A stretch of DNA of 34,352 nucleotides from the IMG/VR virus record IMGVR_UViG_2660238524_000004, one strand, 5' to 3'. A program made the position numbers and the translations under genes. Under the pieces are notes generated by a model. It had not been told where the DNA came from and did not search any database. It worked only from the letters and a program-made list of their open reading frames with translations. This DNA comes from a virus. Taxonomy: Duplodnaviria; Heunggongvirae; Uroviricota; Caudoviricetes. The stretch's first letter is position 1; each line of letters starts with the position of its first letter. Positions 3,347 through 27,378 of the stretch are shown here, one piece after another.

Positions 3347-3618
3347 GTATTCGTATCGAAATTGACGAACGTTATGTCGTTACCAGTGACAGCTTTCAGT
3401 TTATTCTCCACGAGAAAAAGAGAGCGGAAAGCGGTAAAAATGCCGGTCAGGAATGGCTGGCGGTGGTTGGTTATTACCCGAAATTAAGCCAGCTCGTTTC
3501 CGGCCTGATGCATCACGATATTCTGACCGGAAGCGCAAAATCTTTTGCCGATTTAAACGCGCAGGTTGAGCAACTCAGCAAGCGTTGTTCAGAGGCTTTT
3601 GGCTCACATGGCCGTTAA
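3343..3618 (+). CDS. Hypothetical early protein (91 aa), P2 orf83 position
   Basis: ORF overlapping upstream stop and the start of gene A. Confidence 0.5.
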   Translation: MSIRIEIDERYVVTSDSFQFILHEKKRAESGKNAGQEWLAVVGYYPKLSQLVSGLMHHDILTGSAKSFADLNAQVEQLSKRCSEAFGSHGR

Positions 3619-5893
3619 AGCCTCAGGGCGTTTTGTCCCTCCGTCAGCATTTGCTGCAGGCACCGGTAAGGCGTTTACTGGTGCTTATGCATGGAACGCG
3701 CCACGCGAGGCTGTCGGGCGCGAAAGACCTCTTACACGTGACGAGATGCGTCAGGTGCAAGGTGTTTTATCCACGATTAACCGCCTGCCTTACTTTTTGC
3801 GCTCGCTGTTTACTTCACGCTATGACTACATCCGGCGCAATAAAAGCCCGGTGCACGGGTTTTATTTCCTCACATCCACTTTTCAGCGTCGTTTATGGCC
3901 GCGCATTGAGCGTGTGAATCAGCGCCATGAAATGAACACCGACGCGTCGTTGCTGTTTCTGGCAGAGCGTGACCACTATGCGCGCCTGCCGGGAATGAAT
4001 GACAAGGAGCTGAAAAAGTTTGCTGCCCGTATCTCATCGCAGCTTTTCATGATGTATGAGGAACTCAGCGATGCCTGGGTGGATGCGCATGGCGAAAAAG
4101 AATCGCTGTTTACGGATGAGGCGCAGGCTCACCTCTATGGTCATGTTGCTGGCGCTGCACGTGCTTTCAATATTTCCCCGCTCTACTGGAAAAAATACCG
4201 TAAAGGGCAGATGACCACGAGGCAGGCATATTCTGCCATTGCCCGCCTGTTTAACGATGAGTGGTGGACTCATCAGCTTAAAGGCCAGCGTATGCGCTGG
4301 CATGAGGCGTTACTGATTGCTGTCGGGGAGGTGAATAAAGACCGTTCTCCTTATGCCAGTAAACATGCCATTCGTGATGTGCGTGCACGCCGCCAGGCAA
4401 ATCTGGAATTTCTTAAATCGTGTGACCTTGAAAACAGGGAAACCGGCGAGCGCATCGACCTTATCAGTAAGGTGATGGGCAGTATTTCTAATCCTGAAAT
4501 TCGCCGGATGGAGCTGATGAACACCATTGCCGGTATTGAGCGTTACGCCGCCGCAGAGGGTGATGTGGGGATGTTTATCACGCTGACCACGCCGTCAAAG
4601 TATCACCCGACACGTCAGGTCGGAAAAGGCGAAAGTAAAACCGTCCAGCTTAATCACGGCTGGAATGATGAGGCATTTAATCCAAAGGATGCGCAGCGTT
4701 ATCTCTGCCGTATCTGGAGCCTGATGCGCACGGCATTCAAGGATAATGATTTACAGGCCTACGGTTTGCGTGTTGTTGAACCACACCACGACGGAACGCC
4801 GCACTGGCATATGATGCTTTTTTGTAATCCACGCCAGCGTAACCAGATTATTGAAATCATGCGTCGCTATGCGCTCAAAGAGGATGGCGACGAAAGAGGA
4901 GCCGCGCGAAACCGTTTTCAGGCAAAACACCTTAACCGGGGCGGTGCTGCGGGATATATCGCGAAATACATCTCAAAAAACATCGACGGCTATGCACTGG
5001 ATGGTCAGCTCGATAATGATACCGGTAGGCCGCTGAAAGACACAGCTGCTGCTGTTACCGCATGGGCGTCAACGTGGCGCATTCCGCAATTTAAAACGGT
5101 TGGTCTGCCGACAATGGGGGCTTACCGTGAACTACGCAAATTGCCTCGCGGCGTCAGCATTGCTGATGAGTTTGACGAGCGCGTCGAGGCTGCACGCGCC
5201 GCTGCAGACAGTGGTGATTTTGCGTTGTATATCAGCGCGCAGGGCGGGGCAAATGTCCCGCGCGATTGCCAGACTGTCAGGGTCGCCCGTAGCCCGTCGG
5301 ATGACGTTAACGAGTACGAGGAAGAAGTCGAGAGAGTGGTCGGCATTTACGCGCCGCATCTCGGCGCGCGTCATATTCATATCACCAGAACGACGGACTG
5401 GCGCATTGTTCCGAAAGTGCCGGTCGTTGAGCCTTTGACTTTAAAAAGCGGCATCGCCGCGCCTCGGAGTCCTGTCAATAACTGTGGAAAGCTCACCGGT
5501 GGTGATACTTCGTTACCGGCTCCCACACCTTCTGAGCACGCCGCAGCCGTGCTTAATCTGGTTGATGACGGAGTTATTGAATGGAATGAACCGGAGGTCG
5601 TGAGGGCGCTCAGGGGCGCATTAAAACACGACCTGCGAACGCCAAACCGTCAGCAGAGAAACGGAAGCCCGTTAAAACTACATGAAATTGCACCATCGGC
5701 CAGACTGACCCGGTCGGAAAGAATGCAAATTACCCGTATCCGCGTTGACCTTGCTCAGAACTGTATCAGGCCGCAGCGATGGGAGTTTGAGGCGCTGGCG
5801 CGTGGCGCGACCGTAAATTATGACGGAAAAAAATTCACGTATCCGGTCGCTGATGAGTGGCCGGGATTCTCAACAGTAATGGAGTGGAAATGA
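3608..5893 (+). CDS. A: Rolling-circle replication initiator endonuclease, P2 gpA (about 761 aa)
   Basis: ORF track gives 3566..5893; N-terminus from the ATG at 3608 (MAVKASGRFVPPSAF...) and most of the protein match my recollection of P2 A; HUH-type motif region (PHWHMMLF) and paired active-site tyrosines (YIAKYISK) present. Confidence 0.9.
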   Translation: MAVKASGRFVPPSAFAAGTGKAFTGAYAWNAPREAVGRERPLTRDEMRQVQGVLSTINRLPYFLRSLFTSRYDYIRRNKSPVHGFYFLTSTFQRRLWPRIERVNQRHEMNTDASLLFLAERDHYARLPGMNDKELKKFAARISSQLFMMYEELSDAWVDAHGEKESLFTDEAQAHLYGHVAGAARAFNISPLYWKKYRKGQMTTRQAYSAIARLFNDEWWTHQLKGQRMRWHEALLIAVGEVNKDRSPYASKHAIRDVRARRQANLEFLKSCDLENRETGERIDLISKVMGSISNPEIRRMELMNTIAGIERYAAAEGDVGMFITLTTPSKYHPTRQVGKGESKTVQLNHGWNDEAFNPKDAQRYLCRIWSLMRTAFKDNDLQAYGLRVVEPHHDGTPHWHMMLFCNPRQRNQIIEIMRRYALKEDGDERGAARNRFQAKHLNRGGAAGYIAKYISKNIDGYALDGQLDNDTGRPLKDTAAAVTAWASTWRIPQFKTVGLPTMGAYRELRKLPRGVSIADEFDERVEAARAAADSGDFALYISAQGGANVPRDCQTVRVARSPSDDVNEYEEEVERVVGIYAPHLGARHIHITRTTDWRIVPKVPVVEPLTLKSGIAAPRSPVNNCGKLTGGDTSLPAPTPSEHAAAVLNLVDDGVIEWNEPEVVRALRGALKHDLRTPNRQQRNGSPLKLHEIAPSARLTRSERMQITRIRVDLAQNCIRPQRWEFEALARGATVNYDGKKFTYPVADEWPGFSTVMEWK

Positions 5894-6345
5894 TGGCAAA
5901 AATTCACGAGGTAAAGCTGCACGCCAAATATTTTGACCTTGTGCTGGAAGGAAAGAAACGCGCAGAGTTTCGGAAAAATGACCGTAATTATGAGCGCGGG
6001 GACACGTTGATTTTGCATGAATGGGTACAGGGTGTGTATACGGGGCGAAAGGTTGAAGCCCGGATAACAGATGTTACTGACCTGTCAGACTGGCTGGAAG
6101 ATTATGTCTTGCTAAGTATTGAGCTGCTTAATACAGGCGCATATGAGATTGTGAACTGGAAAGAACTTAGTGAGCGTGGTCTGGTATTCAGAATTAATCA
6201 TGAAATTATGCATCAGCTCGGCCTTTCTGTTATGTATGAACCAGAGACGGGGATGTCTGGCGGGGCAATGGTTGCCACGGATGGAGCATGGAACTATTCA
6301 GATGAACAGATGGAGCGTGCACAGCAAAACGGGTGGCTTGGATAA
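5890..6345 (+). CDS. ASCH/EVE-like small protein (about 151 aa), P2 orf91 position
   Basis: ATG overlapping gene A stop (ATGATG at 5890-5895); N-terminal beta-barrel-like segment (KIHEVKLHAKYFDLVLEGKKRAEFRKNDRNYERGDTLILHEW) resembles ASCH/DUF3850-type domains; fold assignment is an impression only. Confidence 0.55.
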   Translation: MMAKIHEVKLHAKYFDLVLEGKKRAEFRKNDRNYERGDTLILHEWVQGVYTGRKVEARITDVTDLSDWLEDYVLLSIELLNTGAYEIVNWKELSERGLVFRINHEIMHQLGLSVMYEPETGMSGGAMVATDGAWNYSDEQMERAQQNGWLG

Positions 6346-6551
6346 TGCACAGAATACCAGGCGAGATACCGCAACATAAAACTAAAAATATCAAGCTGAT
6401 GGCTATTGTTCACCGTCTACAGCAGATTATGGTTAACGAAAATCTGACGCCTGACGAGCTGGTCGGGTGTGCCGAAATAGTCCGGGATAATTACGGGCGG
6501 TTTAACCATATCGGTCAATCCAGAGTTATGCCACCACCACGCAGACGATAG
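6345..6551 (+). CDS. Small hypothetical protein (68 aa)
   Basis: ATG overlapping the orf91 stop (TAATG); no recognisable motif; could be spurious. Confidence 0.25.
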   Translation: MHRIPGEIPQHKTKNIKLMAIVHRLQQIMVNENLTPDELVGCAEIVRDNYGRFNHIGQSRVMPPPRRR

Positions 6552-6780
6552 AGAACGCCGCCAGTCGTGAAACTTGTTTTCAGGGCTGGCGGGGTTGAAC
6601 AACGAGCGAAGCGAGGCGTTAGTTGACAGTAATATTTTTACTGCGTTGGTGCTGGTTTTTGACGGTTGAAAGGAGTTAGCTCGGAGAGCTAAAGCTAACA
6701 ACTTACAAATATTCAAAAGTAAGCTTCCTGTTGCTAACATAAGGTCGATTTTTTATGTGGATGATGCAAAAAGGATAGCT

Positions 6781-7512
6781 ATGGATACTGTAATCGCTTT
6801 TCTATCACTCGCTTTTTTCGTTGCTTTTTTCATCGGGTTAATCAAACCATCACTGGTGCGGATGCCAAACCGTAAACGTGCAAGTGCGGTTTATCTCGGA
6901 GGAGGTTTTGTATTGAGCATAATTGGTTCAATACTCTATCCAACAGAAAAAAGCCAGCCAGTTGCTAAAACTGAAACATCAACCGTTGCAGAACACCAAG
7001 TCCAAAAAACATTCGAATATGGTGGAAAAACACTCAAGGAATATCGGAACGAGCCAAAGAAAACTCGACACGATATTGTAAATAGTTACATTGATTTTAA
7101 GGAAGTGCCAGTCACCGCATCAGATGCATTTTATGCCTGCATGAGTGAATATACTTTTACCAAAGATGATGAGTTGAAACTCGGTGATGTTCTTGGATGG
7201 TGCTTTAATGATTATGAAAAAGATCCGCAATCACTAAACAATAAAATCAACCTTGATACATTTCAGAGTAATTTTAGTGGTTGGGATGGTTCTTATCGAC
7301 CATTGGAAAAGTTAATTAAAGAGAATATGAACGATGATTCATCTTATAAACATGTGTCAACAGTGTATCATTTAATCCTGAATAAAGACCCTCACGCCAT
7401 TGTGAAAACCACATTTCGCGGTACTAATGCCTATGGTGGTGTCGTGAAGCAAACAATAGCAGCGCGTGTTAATGTGAAAACGGGTGAAATAGTTTCGATA
7501 CTAAATAATTGA
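6781..7512 (+). CDS. Cargo gene 1 at the tin/old-equivalent locus: predicted 2-TM membrane protein with about 180-aa soluble C-terminal domain, unknown function
   Basis: ORF track 6757..7512 (GTG); ATG at 6781 has AGGA 5 nt upstream and is preferred; two hydrophobic segments (VIAFLSLAFFVAFFIGLI and AVYLGGGFVLSIIGSILY); AT-rich relative to backbone; sits where P2 carries tin. Confidence 0.65.
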   Translation: MDTVIAFLSLAFFVAFFIGLIKPSLVRMPNRKRASAVYLGGGFVLSIIGSILYPTEKSQPVAKTETSTVAEHQVQKTFEYGGKTLKEYRNEPKKTRHDIVNSYIDFKEVPVTASDAFYACMSEYTFTKDDELKLGDVLGWCFNDYEKDPQSLNNKINLDTFQSNFSGWDGSYRPLEKLIKENMNDDSSYKHVSTVYHLILNKDPHAIVKTTFRGTNAYGGVVKQTIAARVNVKTGEIVSILNN

Positions 7513-7716
7513 TGGTGATGCCACCGATACTGAAGTTTGATATTGTGTCGGTGGCATTGAAAGATGATCTTAAAGCATGTCTATTTTTTTGTTTTACATG
7601 ATTTTTTTTTGATGTGTTGTGCGTTGTTTTGTTTGTAATTAGAGTGCTTGATGATTTAAATTTCGTTTAAATGTTGTGTGAAAATATTGTGATTTTCTAT
7701 ATCAAGGATTTGTTTC

Positions 7717-8415
7717 ATGAAGTATTGTGGGATAGCTTTAATAATATGTCTTTGCTTGTTTATGTTCGCATTTGGTTTTGTGTTGGGTGGAGTTCAATGG
7801 GCATGGGGCGAGAGTGAAAATAATAGCAAGGTCGCATTTTGGACAATGCTAGGAGGGTGGGTGTCAGGATTGGCTACTCTCGCGGCTGTGGGGGTTTCAT
7901 TATTTACAAGTTATTATGCGATGATTTCAGGCAAAGAGAAAGTTGACGTTGTTTTTGCGCCTATATATACGACCTCTACGGCAAAAAAAGCAGATAAGCT
8001 TTCATTGCAAGATTTGGCTAATATCAAAGTGACAAATTTACACGGTGTGAAGTGTACTATTGTTAATGTTTATATGAAGTTTAGTGATGTTAAGGAACCA
8101 TTAAAGATTAATAACCTTAAACAGGGAGGTAAGCCAATACCTTATACGCTATGTAATATAAGCGATATGTGGGAGTTTGCATTTGGGATGGAGTCAAACC
8201 CTAGATTGAGATTTCTATTGTCAGGGTTGAAATATGAAGGTCGACCATCCTTTAAAAAAGGGCATTTCATCATTGAAACAGCAATGAAACAATACAAGTT
8301 AAAGATGCGGAAAGACTTTCTCTCAATATTACAGAGTGAGTATCAAAGCATAGAGGAAGAATCTAAACGTAACTCAGTTAAATCAGGGTGGTCACGGTAT
8401 AAAAAACTGAATTAA
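7717..8415 (+). CDS. Cargo gene 2 at the tin/old-equivalent locus: predicted 2-TM membrane protein (232 aa) with about 150-aa soluble C-terminal domain, unknown function
   Basis: Clean ORF with its own AT-rich upstream region; hydrophobic segments IALIICLCLFMFAFGFVLGGV and WTMLGGWVSGLATLAAVGVSLF; strongly AT-rich codon usage; occupies the position of P2 old but is far too short to be an Old ATPase-nuclease (586 aa). Confidence 0.7.
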   Translation: MKYCGIALIICLCLFMFAFGFVLGGVQWAWGESENNSKVAFWTMLGGWVSGLATLAAVGVSLFTSYYAMISGKEKVDVVFAPIYTTSTAKKADKLSLQDLANIKVTNLHGVKCTIVNVYMKFSDVKEPLKINNLKQGGKPIPYTLCNISDMWEFAFGMESNPRLRFLLSGLKYEGRPSFKKGHFIIETAMKQYKLKMRKDFLSILQSEYQSIEEESKRNSVKSGWSRYKKLN

Positions 8416-8557
8416 TTACCTAATCAGTTATCATGCATACACAATATGCATGGATTTGCATGCGCAAGCAGCATTCACATTGGTTGTTTTAGTTCAGGAC
8501 TGGTGCTGTTTCGACGTGTTCATGCAACTGCATTAAAACCGACCCATGAAGCGGGCG

Positions 8558-8576
8558 GGCGAGGCGGGGAAAGCAC
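8558..8576. other. P2-type cos cohesive-end sequence (19 nt GGCGAGGCGGGGAAAGCAC)
   Basis: Exact 19-mer that I recall as the P2 cohesive end, at the expected place just beyond the 3' end of portal gene Q. Confidence 0.55.
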
Positions 8577-8745
8577 TGCGCGCTGGCGGTGGTGCTGATT
8601 TTATTTTTTCAGCGTCTGAGCGCGTCGTGACGGCGTTTAGATTGTTCGCCGGGGCGTTGGTGTGTCTGCGGGATGTTTTGTGCGGTGGTGAGCGTGTGAG
8701 GGCGTGATGGCGGGTTGTAAAAAAGCCGCCCGCAGGCGGCGATGT

Positions 8746-9780
8746 TCAGCCGTTGTCAGTGTCCAGTGAGTAGTTTTTAAAGCGGATGACCTCCTGACCG
8801 AGCCAGCCGTTTATCTCGCGGATCCTGTCCTGTAGCGGGATAAGCTCATTGCGGACAAAGACCTTTGCCACTTTCTCAATATCACCCAGCGACCCGACGT
8901 TCTCCGGCTTGCCGCCCATCAACTGAAAGGGGATGCGGTGCGCGTCCAGCAGGTCAGCGGCGCTGGCTTTTTTGATATTAAAAAAATCGTCCTTCGTTGC
9001 CACTTCACTGAGCGGGATAATTTTAATGCCGTCGGCTTTTCCCTGTGGGGCGTAGAGAAACAGGTTTTTAAAGTTGTTGCGGCCTTTCGACTTCACCATG
9101 TTTTCGCGAAGCATTTCGATATCGTTGCGATCCTGCACGGCATCGGTGACGTACATGATATATCCGGCATGAGCGCCGTTTTCGTAATACTTGCGGCGGA
9201 ACAGCGTGGCCGACTCATTCAGCCAGGCAGAGTTAAGGGCGCTGAGATATTCCGGCAGGCCGTACAGCTCCTGATTAATATCCGGCTCCAGCAGGTGAAA
9301 CACGGAGCCGGGCGTGAAAGCTGTCGGCTCGTTGAAGGACGGCACCCACCAGTAAACATCCTCCTCCACCCCACGGCGGGTATATTTTGCCGGTGAGGTT
9401 TCCAGTCTGATGACCTTACCGGTAGTGCTGTAACGCTTTTCCAGAAACGCATTACCGAACACCAGAAAATCCAGCACAAAGCGGCTGAAATCCTGCTGGG
9501 AAAGCCACGGGTGCGGGATAAACGTTGAGGCCAGAATATTACGTTTGACGTAAATCGGTGAGCTGTGATGCACGGCAGCACGCAGGCTTTTTGCCAGACC
9601 GGTAAAGCTGACCGGTGGCTCATACCATCTGCCGTTACTGATGCACTCAACGTAATCCAGAATGTCACGGCGGTCGAGTACCGGCACCGGCTCACCAAAG
9701 GTGAATGCCGCCATTTTCGGGGCGCTGGCGGTCATTGTTTTTGCCGCAGGTTGCGGTGTTTTCCCTTTTTTCTTGCTCAT
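8746..9780 (-). CDS. Q: Portal protein, P2 gpQ (344 aa)
   Basis: Size and sequence consistent with P2 Q; adjacent to and co-oriented with terminase large subunit; start overlaps the P stop. Confidence 0.9.
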   Translation of the reverse strand: MSKKKGKTPQPAAKTMTASAPKMAAFTFGEPVPVLDRRDILDYVECISNGRWYEPPVSFTGLAKSLRAAVHHSSPIYVKRNILASTFIPHPWLSQQDFSRFVLDFLVFGNAFLEKRYSTTGKVIRLETSPAKYTRRGVEEDVYWWVPSFNEPTAFTPGSVFHLLEPDINQELYGLPEYLSALNSAWLNESATLFRRKYYENGAHAGYIMYVTDAVQDRNDIEMLRENMVKSKGRNNFKNLFLYAPQGKADGIKIIPLSEVATKDDFFNIKKASAADLLDAHRIPFQLMGGKPENVGSLGDIEKVAKVFVRNELIPLQDRIREINGWLGQEVIRFKNYSLDTDNG

Positions 9781-23049: not shown

Positions 23050-23417
23050 TGGCTTTCAGAATGAGTGCAGAAGCACAAACTATCCGCGTTTTCAATTTAC
23101 TTGATGGAACCAATGAATTTATTGGCGAAAGTGATGCATATATTCCACCGTATACTGGCCTGCCTGCAAACAGTACAGATATTGCACCACCTGATATTCC
23201 TGCTGGTTATGCAGCCGTTTTCAATGCAGATGAAATGAAATGGGAGTTGATGGAAGATCATCGCGGAAAGACTGTCTACGAAACGAAAACGGGAGCAGCC
23301 ATTTATATTTCTGAACTTGGCGCATTACCTCCAGACGTGACAGCCATTTCCCCGGATGGGGATTATCAGAAATGGAACGGAAATGCGTGGGTGAATGATG
23401 AGTGCGTATTACCGTGA
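23049..23417 (+). pseudogene. tfa: Tail fibre assembly chaperone (lambda Tfa-like), N-terminal fragment truncated by IS insertion; last 15 nt, including the stop, come from the IS end
   Basis: N-terminus [51 protein letters not shown] closely resembles lambda Tfa; native reading frame ends at 23402 where the IS begins. Confidence 0.8.
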
Positions 23418-23487
23418 AGGAGATCGGTGAGTAACATCGATGGAGATCGGTTCGTGTCACTTTCACAGAACCGTTTTTAAATTACCT

Positions 23488-24237
23488 TCACTGATCTCCT
23501 TCGGTCAACGGAGATTGTATTTTCCGCATTGATTCTCCTTTAAGTTCGATCTTGATACTGCCATGAACCAGTCGATCTAGGATGGCATCCGCATGTGTGG
23601 AGTCTCCGATCATTTTGTACCAGTTTTCCACCGGCAACTGGCTCACTACGATGATTGAGCCTCGTTGGTACATCAGATCCACTATTTCCAGCAGGTCGCT
23701 ACGCTGTTCTGATGAGAGAGGTTCCAGCCCCCAGTCATCCAGAAGCAGCAGATCGCTATTATTCAGCCTGGTCAAAAGTTTGCTGTATCTTCCATCAGCA
23801 TGCCCCTGATAGCACTGTTCCATCAGCGCTTTAAGGCGATAATAGTAGACCTTGTATCCCTGTCGGCAGGCATTATGACCAAGTGCACATGCCAGGAACG
23901 TTTTACCGCTGCCGGTGGCCCCGGTCAGTAAAATATTTTGTTTCAGGGTTAACCAGTTTCCCTGACTGAGTGAACGGATGAGGGCCCTGTCCAGCCCTCT
24001 ATTGTTACGATAATCCAGCTTTGATAACTCAGCATTAAGTCTGAACCGTGCATGTTTGATCAGACGCTCTGCCTTCCTGTTTTCACGGCAGGTTAGTTCT
24101 TCTGCTGTCAGTAATGACAGGCGTTCTTCGAAGCCCAGCTCCTGGTATGTGCCCGGTTGAGCAAGTTGCTTTTTAAGCGCATCACGGAAGCCGGTGAGTT
24201 TAAGTGCGGTCAGTTGTTCGTAAAGATGATTCATCAT
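23488..24237 (-). CDS. istB: IS21-family helper ATPase IstB (249 aa)
   Basis: Walker A motif GATGSGKT and DnaA/DnaC-like AAA+ region; immediately downstream of istA. Confidence 0.9.
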   Translation of the reverse strand: MMNHLYEQLTALKLTGFRDALKKQLAQPGTYQELGFEERLSLLTAEELTCRENRKAERLIKHARFRLNAELSKLDYRNNRGLDRALIRSLSQGNWLTLKQNILLTGATGSGKTFLACALGHNACRQGYKVYYYRLKALMEQCYQGHADGRYSKLLTRLNNSDLLLLDDWGLEPLSSEQRSDLLEIVDLMYQRGSIIVVSQLPVENWYKMIGDSTHADAILDRLVHGSIKIELKGESMRKIQSPLTEGDQ

Positions 24238-24248
24238 TGGATCCCGTA

Positions 24249-25790
24249 TCAGTGGTAATACTCACTGCCGCGTACGTTTTCGTGTTCCATCGTGGATAAC
24301 AGATCTGGTTTTGGATCCTGAACAGGTTGTTTATCCAGACCTTTTTCCAGGATCGATTTAATACCTGACAGACGCCATACCTTTGTTTTCAGAGCTCTTG
24401 CACATGCTGCATTAAGTCTGGCTTTACTGTATTTTTTATGAAGGTTCAGGAGTCCAAGGCAGAAGCGATAGCTTTGTTCCGGATGTGGACGAGAGTTCAG
24501 TATATGAAGCACATAACTATGAGTTTCACTGCCTATGTGCCCCGCCCATTCCAGAAGACGCTCTGGCGTCCAGGTGGCATGCTGTCGATGAGCTTCAGGC
24601 ATGTGCTCGTTGCGGGTACTGTAGCCATAAGTACGCTTGCGCGGGTGCACAGCAACCTCCTGCCCCTGATTGAAGAGTCTTACCAGTTCTCCGGAGATCC
24701 ATGCTTCCAGTTGCTGGCCTAACAGCGAACATGGAACCGAGTAGTAATGTTTGTCGATTTCCACGTGGTAATCGGCATGAACTCTGACTTTCTTCACCAG
24801 GGTGTAACTGTAACTGGCTTCAGGAAGAGGCTTCAGTGCGGGTTTATCAAGCTGGATGAAGAGTTCTGCACGTGAATAACCCAACTTCTGCATTATTTTG
24901 TTATTCAGTCTTTCCAGCAACTCCCGAATGCGCTGATTAAGCGATGCAAGGCTGTAGAAGATCTCATGCCTGATTCGGGCCATGATCCAGCGTTCAACAA
25001 CCTGAACGCCAACTTCAGCTTTGGCTTTATCTTTCGGTTTACGTGGCCGCGCAGGCAAAACTGCGACATTATAATGCTCAAGCATCTGCTGGTAGGTAGG
25101 GTTAACGTCAGGATCATACTTACATGCCCTGGATGTGGCGCTTTTCAGATTGTCCGGAACAACAAGTTCAGGAACGCCACCCAACCACTGGAAGCAGCGA
25201 ACATGACTCATCACCCAGTCTTCAAGCTGCTGAGACCAGGTGGCCTCTGCCCATGTGTAACTTGATGCCCCGAGAACAGCTACGATGACCTGAGCAGTTC
25301 TTATTTCTCCGGTCTCAGGGTCGGTAACGCCAACGGTAGGTCCACAGTAATCAACGAAAAGTTTTTCGCCAGCTTTATGTACCTGACGCATTGATGGTGA
25401 AGTGGTTTTGAGCCATTCACGGTACATCCGGCAGTAATGGTTATAGCTGTAAAAACCGCCTGGATTACGCTCACAGTATTCTTCCCAGAGTAGCTGCAGC
25501 GTCACGCATTTATTACGCAGTTCCCGGTGTACTGTAGCCCAGTCAGGCAGAGAGTGCTTCTTCATCTTAACCTGGGTCTGAAGGAACGCATGTTTTAGTT
25601 TTGTATCATCCCATCCTGTAGGTAAGGGCCACTGCTTTATGCCAAGTTGAGCCGCCCGATTAGCATATCTGGATACAACGGAAGGGGAGATTGCAAGACT
25701 ACGACCAATTTGTCGATGGCTGAGTCCAACACCGTATTTAAGCCTAAGAATTTCTTTAAGTTTTCTCATAGAAATTGGAACTGTTGGCAT
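24249..25790 (-). CDS. istA: IS21-family transposase IstA (513 aa)
   Basis: N-terminal HTH, central DDE-type integrase core; followed by istB with a short spacer as in IS21-family elements. Confidence 0.9.
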   Translation of the reverse strand: MPTVPISMRKLKEILRLKYGVGLSHRQIGRSLAISPSVVSRYANRAAQLGIKQWPLPTGWDDTKLKHAFLQTQVKMKKHSLPDWATVHRELRNKCVTLQLLWEEYCERNPGGFYSYNHYCRMYREWLKTTSPSMRQVHKAGEKLFVDYCGPTVGVTDPETGEIRTAQVIVAVLGASSYTWAEATWSQQLEDWVMSHVRCFQWLGGVPELVVPDNLKSATSRACKYDPDVNPTYQQMLEHYNVAVLPARPRKPKDKAKAEVGVQVVERWIMARIRHEIFYSLASLNQRIRELLERLNNKIMQKLGYSRAELFIQLDKPALKPLPEASYSYTLVKKVRVHADYHVEIDKHYYSVPCSLLGQQLEAWISGELVRLFNQGQEVAVHPRKRTYGYSTRNEHMPEAHRQHATWTPERLLEWAGHIGSETHSYVLHILNSRPHPEQSYRFCLGLLNLHKKYSKARLNAACARALKTKVWRLSGIKSILEKGLDKQPVQDPKPDLLSTMEHENVRGSEYYH

Positions 25791-25983
25791 AGGTATCCTT
25801 TACCGGAATGGCAAAAGATACAGATCAACACACCTGTGAAGTTCCAATAACATTGATGGAGATCACTGAATAACAAAATGAGTCAAAAGTGATCTCCATC
25901 GATGTTATTCAGCGATCTGTTCAAATGTTATTACCCGATCTCGATGGAAGTTATTGAGTGATCTCCTTTCATGAAAATACGCA

Positions 25984-26213
25984 ATGAGAATGCAGAGCGT
26001 GATGCACTTGTCAGAGCGGCGGAGTCTCAGAAGAAAGAGCAGATTGCATATGCCGGTGAAATTATTGCCACGCTGCAGGATGCTGTCGATTTAGATATGG
26101 CTACCGAGGAAGAAAAGTTAAGTCTGACACACTGGAAAAAATACCGTGTGCTACTGAATCGCGTTCAGCCGGAAGATGCTCCGGATATAGAATGGCCGGA
26201 AATGCCGCGATAA
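25984..26213 (+). pseudogene. tfa: Tail fibre assembly chaperone (lambda Tfa-like), C-terminal fragment downstream of the IS
   Basis: Frame continuing from the target duplication encodes ...NAERDALVRAAESQKKEQIAYAGEIIATLQDAVDLDMATEEEKLSLTHWKKYRVLLNRVQPEDAPDIEWPEMPR, resembling the lambda Tfa C-terminus; joining 23049-23402 to 25989-26213 restores a 192-aa ORF. Confidence 0.8.
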
Positions 26214-26469: not shown

Positions 26470-26877
26470 ATGGCTAAGCGGATTCCTGGTGTTAGTAAAG
26501 AATGGTCTAACTATCTCCTTTGTTTATTATTACATATGTCTTTACCTCTCTTACCTTTGGGGTTCGAGACACTTGTGCGTTCCGATCACTTGCCATCAAT
26601 ACAAACATTAAACATTACAGCGGCGTTTTATGCGATCTCGATAGGGCTTTCTTCTAAGAACGTTGCTATGTTTGGTTTGGGTATATTCGTGAGCATTTGT
26701 TTCTCTGTTGTATTTGGGATTGTTTCTTCAAATCCTAATTCTGATCCTAATCTTAATTTTAATGATAACTTGTATTTTTATTCTCCAATTGCGTGTATTG
26801 TTGCTATATTTGTTATACATGCATGTGAACGATATAACAGGCATGTTGCTGATTGTACACCATTTTTTGAGTTTTAA
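26470..26877 (+). CDS. Cargo gene at the Z/fun-equivalent locus: small multi-pass membrane protein (up to 135 aa), unknown function
   Basis: AT-rich ORF with several hydrophobic segments (LLCLLLHMSLPLLPLGF, AAFYAISIGL, FGLGIFVSICFSVVFGIV, IACIVAIFVI); no clear RBS at the first ATG so the start is uncertain. Confidence 0.45.
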   Translation: MAKRIPGVSKEWSNYLLCLLLHMSLPLLPLGFETLVRSDHLPSIQTLNITAAFYAISIGLSSKNVAMFGLGIFVSICFSVVFGIVSSNPNSDPNLNFNDNLYFYSPIACIVAIFVIHACERYNRHVADCTPFFEF

Positions 26878-26886
26878 GGGGGTGCT

Positions 26887-27378
26887 ATGATTGATACAAT
26901 TATCCCAGTAATACTATCAATTCTCCCGGCAATACTATCTATATTTAGCTTAGTAGCTGTTTCTATAGGTGCATTAGTATCTATCAGGTCTGTTAAAAAA
27001 AGACGTGAAATAGAAGTTCAGCTTTTTAATGAGATAATAAATCAACAAATTAAACAAACTAAAAGCAACCGTAAAAAGGATCTTGAAAATAGTGTTAATG
27101 AAATAGAAAATGAACTCAAGAGAAGAGTTGATATTTTGAATAAAATGCAAAAAGATCTAGAAGCAGTTTCAGAGAACAAATACTATTTTGATAAAGCAAA
27201 ATATCTTCGAAATGTCAAGTATGGAGAGTATTTATTAGAGATAAATGAAGCTGTGAATAATATTGATAATAAAAACAAACACTTACTAAATAACGCTCTT
27301 AATCAAAGCTCTGAGATTGGAAAAGTAAGATATCTTGGAAGAATAACAAAGGAAGCACTGGAAAAAACAGTAGGCTGA
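26887..27378 (+). CDS. Cargo gene at the Z/fun-equivalent locus: single-TM protein with long K/E/N-rich coiled-coil-like domain (163 aa), unknown function
   Basis: RBS AAGGGGG 6 nt upstream of the ATG; N-terminal hydrophobic segment IIPVILSILPAILSIFSLVAVSIGALV then charged helical region; very AT-rich. Confidence 0.65.
   Translation: MIDTIIPVILSILPAILSIFSLVAVSIGALVSIRSVKKRREIEVQLFNEIINQQIKQTKSNRKKDLENSVNEIENELKRRVDILNKMQKDLEAVSENKYYFDKAKYLRNVKYGEYLLEINEAVNNIDNKNKHLLNNALNQSSEIGKVRYLGRITKEALEKTVG

Follow-up and report, generated by a model that had tools for sequence, protein, structure and literature searches.

What two genes of unfamiliar sequence encode, and whether they work as one system, is the question raised by the locus that holds tin and old in phage P2. 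The window analyzed here (the whole 34,352-nucleotide stretch of IMG/VR record IMGVR_UViG_2660238524_000004) is a P2-like (Peduovirus) prophage, and two co-oriented genes rich in adenine and thymine (AT-rich), gene 1 (6781..7512, + strand) and gene 2 (7717..8415, + strand), lie in it between gene A with the adjoining DUF3850 gene and an exact copy of the P2 cos 19-mer; they therefore occupy the P2 tin/old slot, in which tin and old are encoded on the opposite strand. This placement, proposed in a preliminary description of positions 6552-8557, was confirmed by the open reading frames (ORFs), the annotation and the cos site. The same description had taken the two genes for a pair forming an undescribed defence or exclusion module. 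We found that the segment consists of two independent single-gene cargo cassettes, accessory genes that phage growth does not require, and not of one system, and that gene 1, judged by its sequence, is the P2-lineage copy of orf97 of coliphage 186.

Gene 1 and gene 2 are independent cargo cassettes

Gene 1 was found alone in the hotspot (loci L004-L006; Kluyvera, Citrobacter and Erwinia prophages) as well as followed by genes unrelated to gene 2, of which there are at least five in E. coli and other Enterobacterales (L007/L052, L053, L054, L055, L015 and L018). In 186-like phages and prophages it sits after tum/DinI, in Photorhabdus it adjoins ogr and gpD at the prophage end, and in Yersinia it persists beside an integrase fragment. 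Relatives of gene 2 with 30-51% identity, in turn, are found where gene 1 is missing: prophages of Citrobacter, E. coli, Enterobacter and Serratia and one metagenome contig have them in the A-Q hotspot. More distant ones stand, in one phage type, between holin-endolysin-Rz and the terminase genes, and in another between the portal and scaffold genes. On this pattern of co-occurrence a two-gene module was rejected, and the pairing suggested in the preliminary description did not stand. An origin of the two genes as paralogues was rejected as well, the hhalign probability being 4%.

In those P2-like phages of E. coli, Salmonella and IMG/VR in which the two genes are neighbours, gene 1 shows 93-96% conservation at the DNA level, whereas the gene 2 alleles next to it are just 28-40% identical to one another and to the window allele. 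The DNA of the different loci ceases to be homologous at the stop codon of gene 1 (~7510), and homology resumes ~40 bp before cos. From this break and from the divergence of the next-door alleles it follows that gene 1 is a semi-fixed accessory gene, that the slot really swapped extends from 7513 to ~8515, and that gene 2 is one of its many alternative occupants. Among 5,426 complete E. coli genomes, gene 1 was present in 84 and this gene 2 allele in 7. The two genes are physically separated by a strong hairpin directly 3′ of the gene 1 stop codon (7515..7560, + strand) and by a 204-bp spacer with a guanine-cytosine (GC) content of 30%, which reaches to 7716. The RNA of 7510-7575 folds at -25.2 kcal/mol; its stem is ~14 bp long, and a U tract is absent.

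On the other side of gene 1, a 69-bp stem-loop (6554..6622, + strand; -30.6 kcal/mol) marks the boundary of the orf97 cassette. This element is located upstream of gene 1 in P2-like phages of E. coli and directly downstream of orf97 in phage 186 and 186-like phages, and it flanks gene 1 as direct repeats in five loci (L003, L025 and L027-L029). Copies were mapped at 4345-4413 of L063, at 1755-1823 and 2728-2781 of L003, and at 3917-3985 and 4884-4952 of L028. An Rfam search of the element gave no family reaching the threshold. It may be a recombination site or a terminator that defines the orf97 cassette.

The contrast in composition with the backbone, noted in the preliminary description, was borne out by computing the GC content, which is 37.8% for gene 1, 30.4% for the intergenic spacer and 37.3% for gene 2, compared with 53.4% for gene A, 53.5% for portal gene Q and 51.2% for the whole window. 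The view of the two genes as horizontally acquired cargo in an established P2 anti-phage hotspot is supported. In a side observation on the same slot, the relative of gene 2 in a P2-like metagenome contig (L067, 2394-4145) is preceded by a SocA/Panacea-domain gene and a 191-amino-acid (aa) gene of no assigned function; this arrangement shows that a toxin-antitoxin-like pair and a gene 2 cassette can be stacked in one hotspot.

Gene 1 is related to orf97 of coliphage 186

The link between gene 1 and 186 came from a translated search of phage genomes, in which the 243-aa gene 1 protein was 79% identical to 186 Orf97 (NP_052294) with 243/243 residues aligned (E = 7e-153). The protein also matched phrog_3403 (3e-145, profile positions 1-243), and in Peduovirus P22H4 a gene 95% identical to gene 1 is already labelled Orf97. 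The location is that of the Orf97 family too, namely a P2/186-type phage and a position between the replication gene and cos. Both genes had been described as uncharacterised, which does not hold for gene 1. According to the GenBank record of 186, the product of orf97 has a phenotype, "expression from plasmid blocks 186 infection", and this precedent makes the exclusion role put forward for the locus plausible in the case of gene 1. The source cited for 186 orf97, as named in PMC5322425, is Brumby et al. 1996 (Virology 219:105). No published mechanism for Orf97 was found, literature searches by protein accession returned nothing, and the BTP5 transcriptome paper reports tum expression and nothing specific on the orf97 homologue.

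The 186 record assigns orf97 to an SOS operon under LexA control, composed in sequence of p95, tum, the partial terminator t95a, orf97 and the terminator t95b. Upstream of the gene 1 start, ~85 bp can still be aligned to this 186 leader, and the t95a hairpin has decayed. No DinI/tum gene was detected upstream of gene 1 by the Pfam scan or in the RefSeq annotation, no LexA-box match was found between 6310 and 9562 (window-wide counts being at chance level), and a sigma-70 promoter scan gave no convincing promoter for gene 1. The SOS operon of 186 orf97 (tum, p95, t95a) is therefore not reproduced here, which is a difference in regulation and not in the protein.

Since tin and old are the P2 occupants of this slot, both genes were compared with them, and neither is Tin or Old. 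In BLASTP against Tin (NP_046797, 253 aa) the E values were 1.2 for gene 1 and 62 for gene 2, and tblastn of the whole window gave a best E of 0.14 for Tin (elsewhere in the window) and of 0.97 for Old, so that Tin/Old homology was rejected. An OLD-family nuclease (P2 Old, ~586 aa, with ATPase and TOPRIM domains) was also rejected because no ORF longer than 251 aa exists on either strand within 6552-8557, just as the preliminary description had said of Old-sized ORFs, and because no AAA or TOPRIM match was obtained in Pfam. The genes of the window further differ from tin and old, which are expressed as a single old-tin transcript and encode soluble cytoplasmic proteins, in being plus-strand genes for membrane proteins without sequence similarity to either. 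What they share with tin and old is the hotspot, which extends from gene A/orf91 to cos, and presumably also the role, the exclusion of other phages by a prophage.

That neither protein carries a recognisable motif also held, with no significant match in Pfam, PADLOC or NCBIfam. PADLOC-DB v2.0.0, which dates from 2023, returned no match at E <= 1 for the protein of gene 1 or gene 2, and PADLOC gave nothing significant for two further gene 2 alleles or for 186 Orf97. None of the superinfection-exclusion families in Pfam or PHROG (Imm, SieB, Cor, etc.) was returned for either protein, and sequence-profile searches of the PDB gave no match for either.

Gene 1 is predicted to carry a periplasmic domain

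Structure models of both proteins agree with the preliminary description in having two N-terminal helices and then a folded soluble domain (~160 aa). The AlphaFold model of gene 1 has a mean predicted local distance difference test (pLDDT) score of 84, and more than 90 across residues 80-243. It comprises two transmembrane (TM) helices, a linker (residues 56-73) that is disordered and varies in composition, a helical subdomain (85-163), and a helix with a four-stranded sheet (173-241).

The soluble domain of gene 1 is predicted to be periplasmic because several lines of evidence point the same way. The mean net charge over 55 gene 1 homologues is +4.65 for the inter-TM loop and -0.76 for the N-terminus. 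C120 and C141 do not vary among 55 family members, nor in the Vibrio and Oxalobacter homologues, and a disulfide between them is probable. The anchor itself varies: in the Oxalobacter homologue it is replaced by a lipoprotein signal peptide with a lipobox (LAGC), and in the Xenorhabdus homologues by a cytoplasmic zinc ribbon and one TM helix. In Firmicutes, the N-terminal anchor module is fused to other domains that, by eye, appear extracytoplasmic. Three Firmicutes loci (L022, L023 and L024) contain this two-TM anchor (motif AF[IV]xGLIKPS) with unrelated C-terminal regions, one of which looks ComEA-type helix-hairpin-helix-like and one DUF4352-type-like by eye. This recurrence suggests that the two-TM segment is a reusable membrane-anchor module.

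The best fold matches of gene 1 were the periplasmic HdeA and HdeB, which match its helical subdomain, and small phage lipoproteins. The HdeA/HdeB matches have 6-16% identity and are accompanied by no Pfam HdeA match, and gene 1 differs from both proteins in its membrane anchor and its extra alpha/beta subdomain. A third homologue search, with a profile of the periplasmic domain, returned only proteins named "hypothetical", "membrane protein" or "zinc ribbon".

Gene 2 belongs to a rare family with a conserved membrane part

The 232-aa gene 2 protein is modelled with two TM helices, an immunoglobulin (Ig)-like beta-sandwich and a C-terminal helix. It matched phrog_16957, a family without annotated function, at E = 1e-51, with residues 6-216 aligned to profile positions 18-221 of 223, so that both the TM hairpin and the beta domain are covered. 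The family is rare: in an exhaustive profile search against 1.84 billion cluster representatives, 128 clusters reached E <= 0.001 and 19 reached E <= 1e-30. Scanning the distant relatives against Pfam and PHROG gave no annotated family.

The conservation pattern of gene 2 is inverted relative to that of a typical anchored protein. Nearly all invariant residues are in the membrane part, chiefly TM2 (M44, G46, W48-G51, A53, T54, A57, V58 and S61), a helix rich in Gly and other small residues, while the soluble domain has just two. The mean pairwise identity is accordingly 75% for TM2 versus 47% for the sandwich. With regard to topology, there is a single basic residue in the N-terminus, the loop between the TM helices is acidic, and the distant relatives have a strongly basic segment after the conserved helix (RNPK…, DKQRRED…). 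Both termini of gene 2 are probably inside, which would place the sandwich in the cytoplasm. In its gross layout gene 2 resembles defence effectors that join TM helices to a beta domain, such as Cap15 of the cyclic-oligonucleotide-based anti-phage signalling system (CBASS), with two TM helices at the N-terminus and a small all-beta domain at the C-terminus.

A role in lysis was considered for gene 2 because its relatives follow holin-endolysin-Rz in some phages, and it was rejected for P2-like phages, in which the gene is far from the lysis genes.

Proposed functions and alternative explanations

We consider it somewhat more probable than the opposite that the locus encodes an Orf97-type envelope exclusion protein next to a single-gene membrane defence candidate, as two independent cargo cassettes. 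In this proposal, gene 1 would be an inner-membrane protein with its N-terminus outside and a strongly basic cytoplasmic inter-TM loop. Its flexible linker would carry a periplasmic domain of ~165 aa, made up of an HdeA-like helical bundle with a probable disulfide and of the helix/four-stranded sheet. The protein may exclude superinfecting P2/186-type phages at an envelope step once they have adsorbed, and the step blocked might be tail-tip penetration or DNA ejection, through interference in the periplasm. Gene 2 would represent one allele of a rare, rapidly diversifying phage cargo family in the cos-proximal slot, with a conserved TM hairpin anchoring a variable, probably cytoplasmic Ig-like sandwich and a C-terminal helix. 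The variable domain could recognise a phage component and the conserved helix could be the effector, which might oligomerise and cause membrane leakage, or else block an inner-membrane entry factor. With low confidence, we infer tentatively that gene 2 is a stand-alone membrane-acting anti-phage protein working by abortive infection or exclusion. A broader claim, that the gene 2 family (~128 clusters) is a new class of single-protein membrane-anchored anti-phage systems, in which the small-residue TM helix acts as effector and the hypervariable sandwich, exchanged as a cassette beside cos, as phage sensor, and that the Orf97 periplasmic domain is a new superinfection-exclusion structural class blocking Peduoviridae genome delivery in the periplasm, is less likely than not.

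Several points weigh against this proposal. The 186 phenotype rests on a one-line GenBank note, and over-expression of a membrane protein from a plasmid can block infection non-specifically. As 186 orf97 lies in a LexA-controlled SOS operon, it may naturally act upon induction and not in the stable lysogen. In the window tum, a LexA box near gene 1 and a convincing sigma-70 promoter are all lacking, so that expression of gene 1 in the lysogen is no more than possible. The topology of gene 2 is rule-based, with a weak positive-inside signal in close relatives and basic post-TM segments in distant ones. Any activity of the window alleles of gene 1 and gene 2 is a prediction, and in Rousset et al. 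2022 only 3/8 additional candidates from the P2 hotspot protected against the phage panel used.

Other explanations start from the same data. If gene 1 served the lytic cycle of the phage, it would stop progeny or siblings from re-injecting into a committed cell, or modulate envelope events before lysis, and would not protect the lysogen. The transcription of 186 orf97 with tum from the LexA-repressed p95, downstream of a partial terminator, fits such a role, as do the ~85 bp of 186 leader still recognisable upstream of gene 1 and the co-orientation of gene 1 with the early operon (gene A) without a clear promoter of its own. However, the SOS context (tum, LexA box) is missing here, and gene 1 persists in prophage remnants and at other prophage positions, which suggests a benefit to the host. 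A purely lytic role is in our view rather unlikely, and it overlaps with prophage exclusion in that both are superinfection exclusion and only the timing differs. The two genes might instead be lysogenic-conversion genes for host fitness, gene 1 being periplasmic stress- or chaperone-like in the manner of HdeA and gene 2 encoding an Ig-like protein related to the envelope or to adhesion. HdeA and HdeB as the top structural matches of the gene 1 helical subdomain and the lack of any defence-database match speak for this, and Rousset et al. report hotspot cargo other than defence (partition systems, cytolethal distending toxin); on the other side stands the infection block recorded for 186 orf97, and we regard a host-fitness role as unlikely.

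A single two-component defence or exclusion module, for example with gene 1 as periplasmic sensor and gene 2 as effector, is the least probable explanation. In its favour, the two genes are adjacent and co-oriented, and among E. coli, Salmonella and IMG/VR P2-like genomes each gene 2 allele of the group with 28-40% identity directly follows gene 1, as seen in 7/7 viral contigs, in L002 and L003, and in phages S164 and BIS20. This adjacency is explained by the semi-fixed position of gene 1, on the left of the slot where the swapping takes place. The module is further contradicted by gene 1 standing alone or beside at least five unrelated genes, by 186 orf97 being recorded as blocking infection by itself, by the gene 2 relatives (30-51%) in hotspots without gene 1, and by the hairpin (-25 kcal/mol) and 204-bp spacer between the genes.

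Comparison with known exclusion proteins and earlier records of the locus

Gene 1 and 186 Orf97 share the Peduoviridae background, the cos-proximal region between gene A and cos, the ~85 bp of leader and the 69-bp element, and they differ in that 186 orf97 is preceded by tum and the LexA-controlled p95 and gene 1 by the DUF3850 gene and a small ORF. T4 Imm and Sp and HK97 gp15 are small phage inner-membrane proteins that block DNA entry by related phages after adsorption. The likeness of genes 1 and 2 to Imm/Sp, P22 SieA and gp15 is one of functional analogy only, as no profile or fold match links them and the periplasmic domain of gene 1 is much larger. P22 SieA is likewise a small phage inner-membrane protein, which stops DNA entry of related phages after adsorption (PMC10883804).

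The locus was established experimentally as an anti-phage hotspot, and its contents were catalogued, by Rousset et al. 2022; in their Table S5 these exact proteins are listed as "DUF3850/ASCH + hypothetical + hypothetical + hypothetical". In the main text, no tested system like genes 1 and 2 is named. As this listing exists and both proteins belong to PHROG families, calling the locus undescribed was an overstatement. A 2026 follow-up reported that 19% of P2-like phages have only unknown genes at the main hotspot, and that, of eight unknown-gene loci picked at random in the equivalent hotspot of P4, six gave protection against phages, with no P2 loci assayed (bioRxiv 10.64898/2026.02.27.708500). 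The defence record of the P2 hotspot and these P4 results count in favour of an anti-phage role of gene 2.

The segment is, then, ordinary hotspot cargo, in which gene 1 belongs to a family with a long-recorded, unexplained exclusion phenotype and gene 2 to a rare family that is a candidate for defence. The locus gives two tractable single-gene candidates and is a good bench target, although it will not surprise specialists. Gene 1 offers a 30-year-old exclusion phenotype that is mechanistically unexplored, with an active domain predicted to be periplasmic and to hold a probable disulfide. The block of a contractile-tailed phage by Orf97, if explained, would bear on the poorly understood passage of P2/186 genomes across the periplasm. 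For gene 2, the proposed layout of conserved effector and variable sensor would suit the swapping of alleles.

Organization of the hotspot and its flanks

Positions 6300-8700 of the window are 99.9% identical to Peduovirus P24A7b, whose linear record terminates at window position 8557, and 100% identical to E. coli NZ_OZ039410. The RefSeq annotation of the latter gives, in order, the replication endonuclease A, a DUF3850 protein, a small hypothetical, two hypotheticals, and a portal gene on the opposite strand. The left backbone flank is replication endonuclease gene A (3608..5893, + strand; GC 53%), identified from this annotation of the identical E. coli locus. It is followed by the DUF3850/ASCH gene (5893..6345, + strand; Pfam PF12961 8e-18, PF24187 2e-13 and PF04266 9e-11), which RefSeq also annotates and which is equivalent to P2 orf91, itself a DUF3850 gene, with an extra DUF7415 C-terminal domain. 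The next ORF (6345..6551, + strand), annotated in RefSeq, belongs to a small conserved type of 68-72 aa in phrog_11386 (3.5e-41), a family with no assigned function, and is kept together with gene 1 across E. coli loci. An antisense ORF of 107 aa (6417-6740, - strand), which overlaps this small ORF and the spacer upstream of gene 1 and has no RefSeq annotation, is probably spurious.

The gene 1 ORF extends over 6757/6781..7512 (+ strand), and the ATG at 6781 is supported by the full-length phrog_3403 match (positions 1-243) and by the RefSeq annotation. The right boundary of the hotspot is the cos cohesive-end 19-mer (8558..8576, + strand), an exact match to P2 cosR (GGCGAGGCGGGGAAAGCAC), and the right backbone flank is portal gene Q (8746..9780, - strand), an ORF that RefSeq annotates as "phage portal protein".

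Other features of the prophage

A second low-GC island (26470-27378, 30-35% GC) lies between the tail-fibre assembly gene and backbone genes of 53-57% GC, at what we take to be the P2 Z/fun position. Neither of its two membrane-protein ORFs had a match in Pfam or PADLOC; one encodes 135 aa and appears multi-TM by eye, and the other encodes 163 aa, of which the N-terminal part holds a TM helix and the C-terminal part is charged and helix-like.

An IS21-family element of ~2.58 kb is present at ~23402-25983, with rve and Mu-transposase C-terminal domains and the istA ORF at 24249-25790 (- strand). It is an insertion relative to P24A7b, in which the flanking sequences are contiguous. The adjacent 80-aa ORF (25971-26213) matches a tail-fibre assembly protein over just its C-terminal half; the element therefore appears to split the tail-fibre assembly gene, and as a result the prophage may be unable to make infectious particles.

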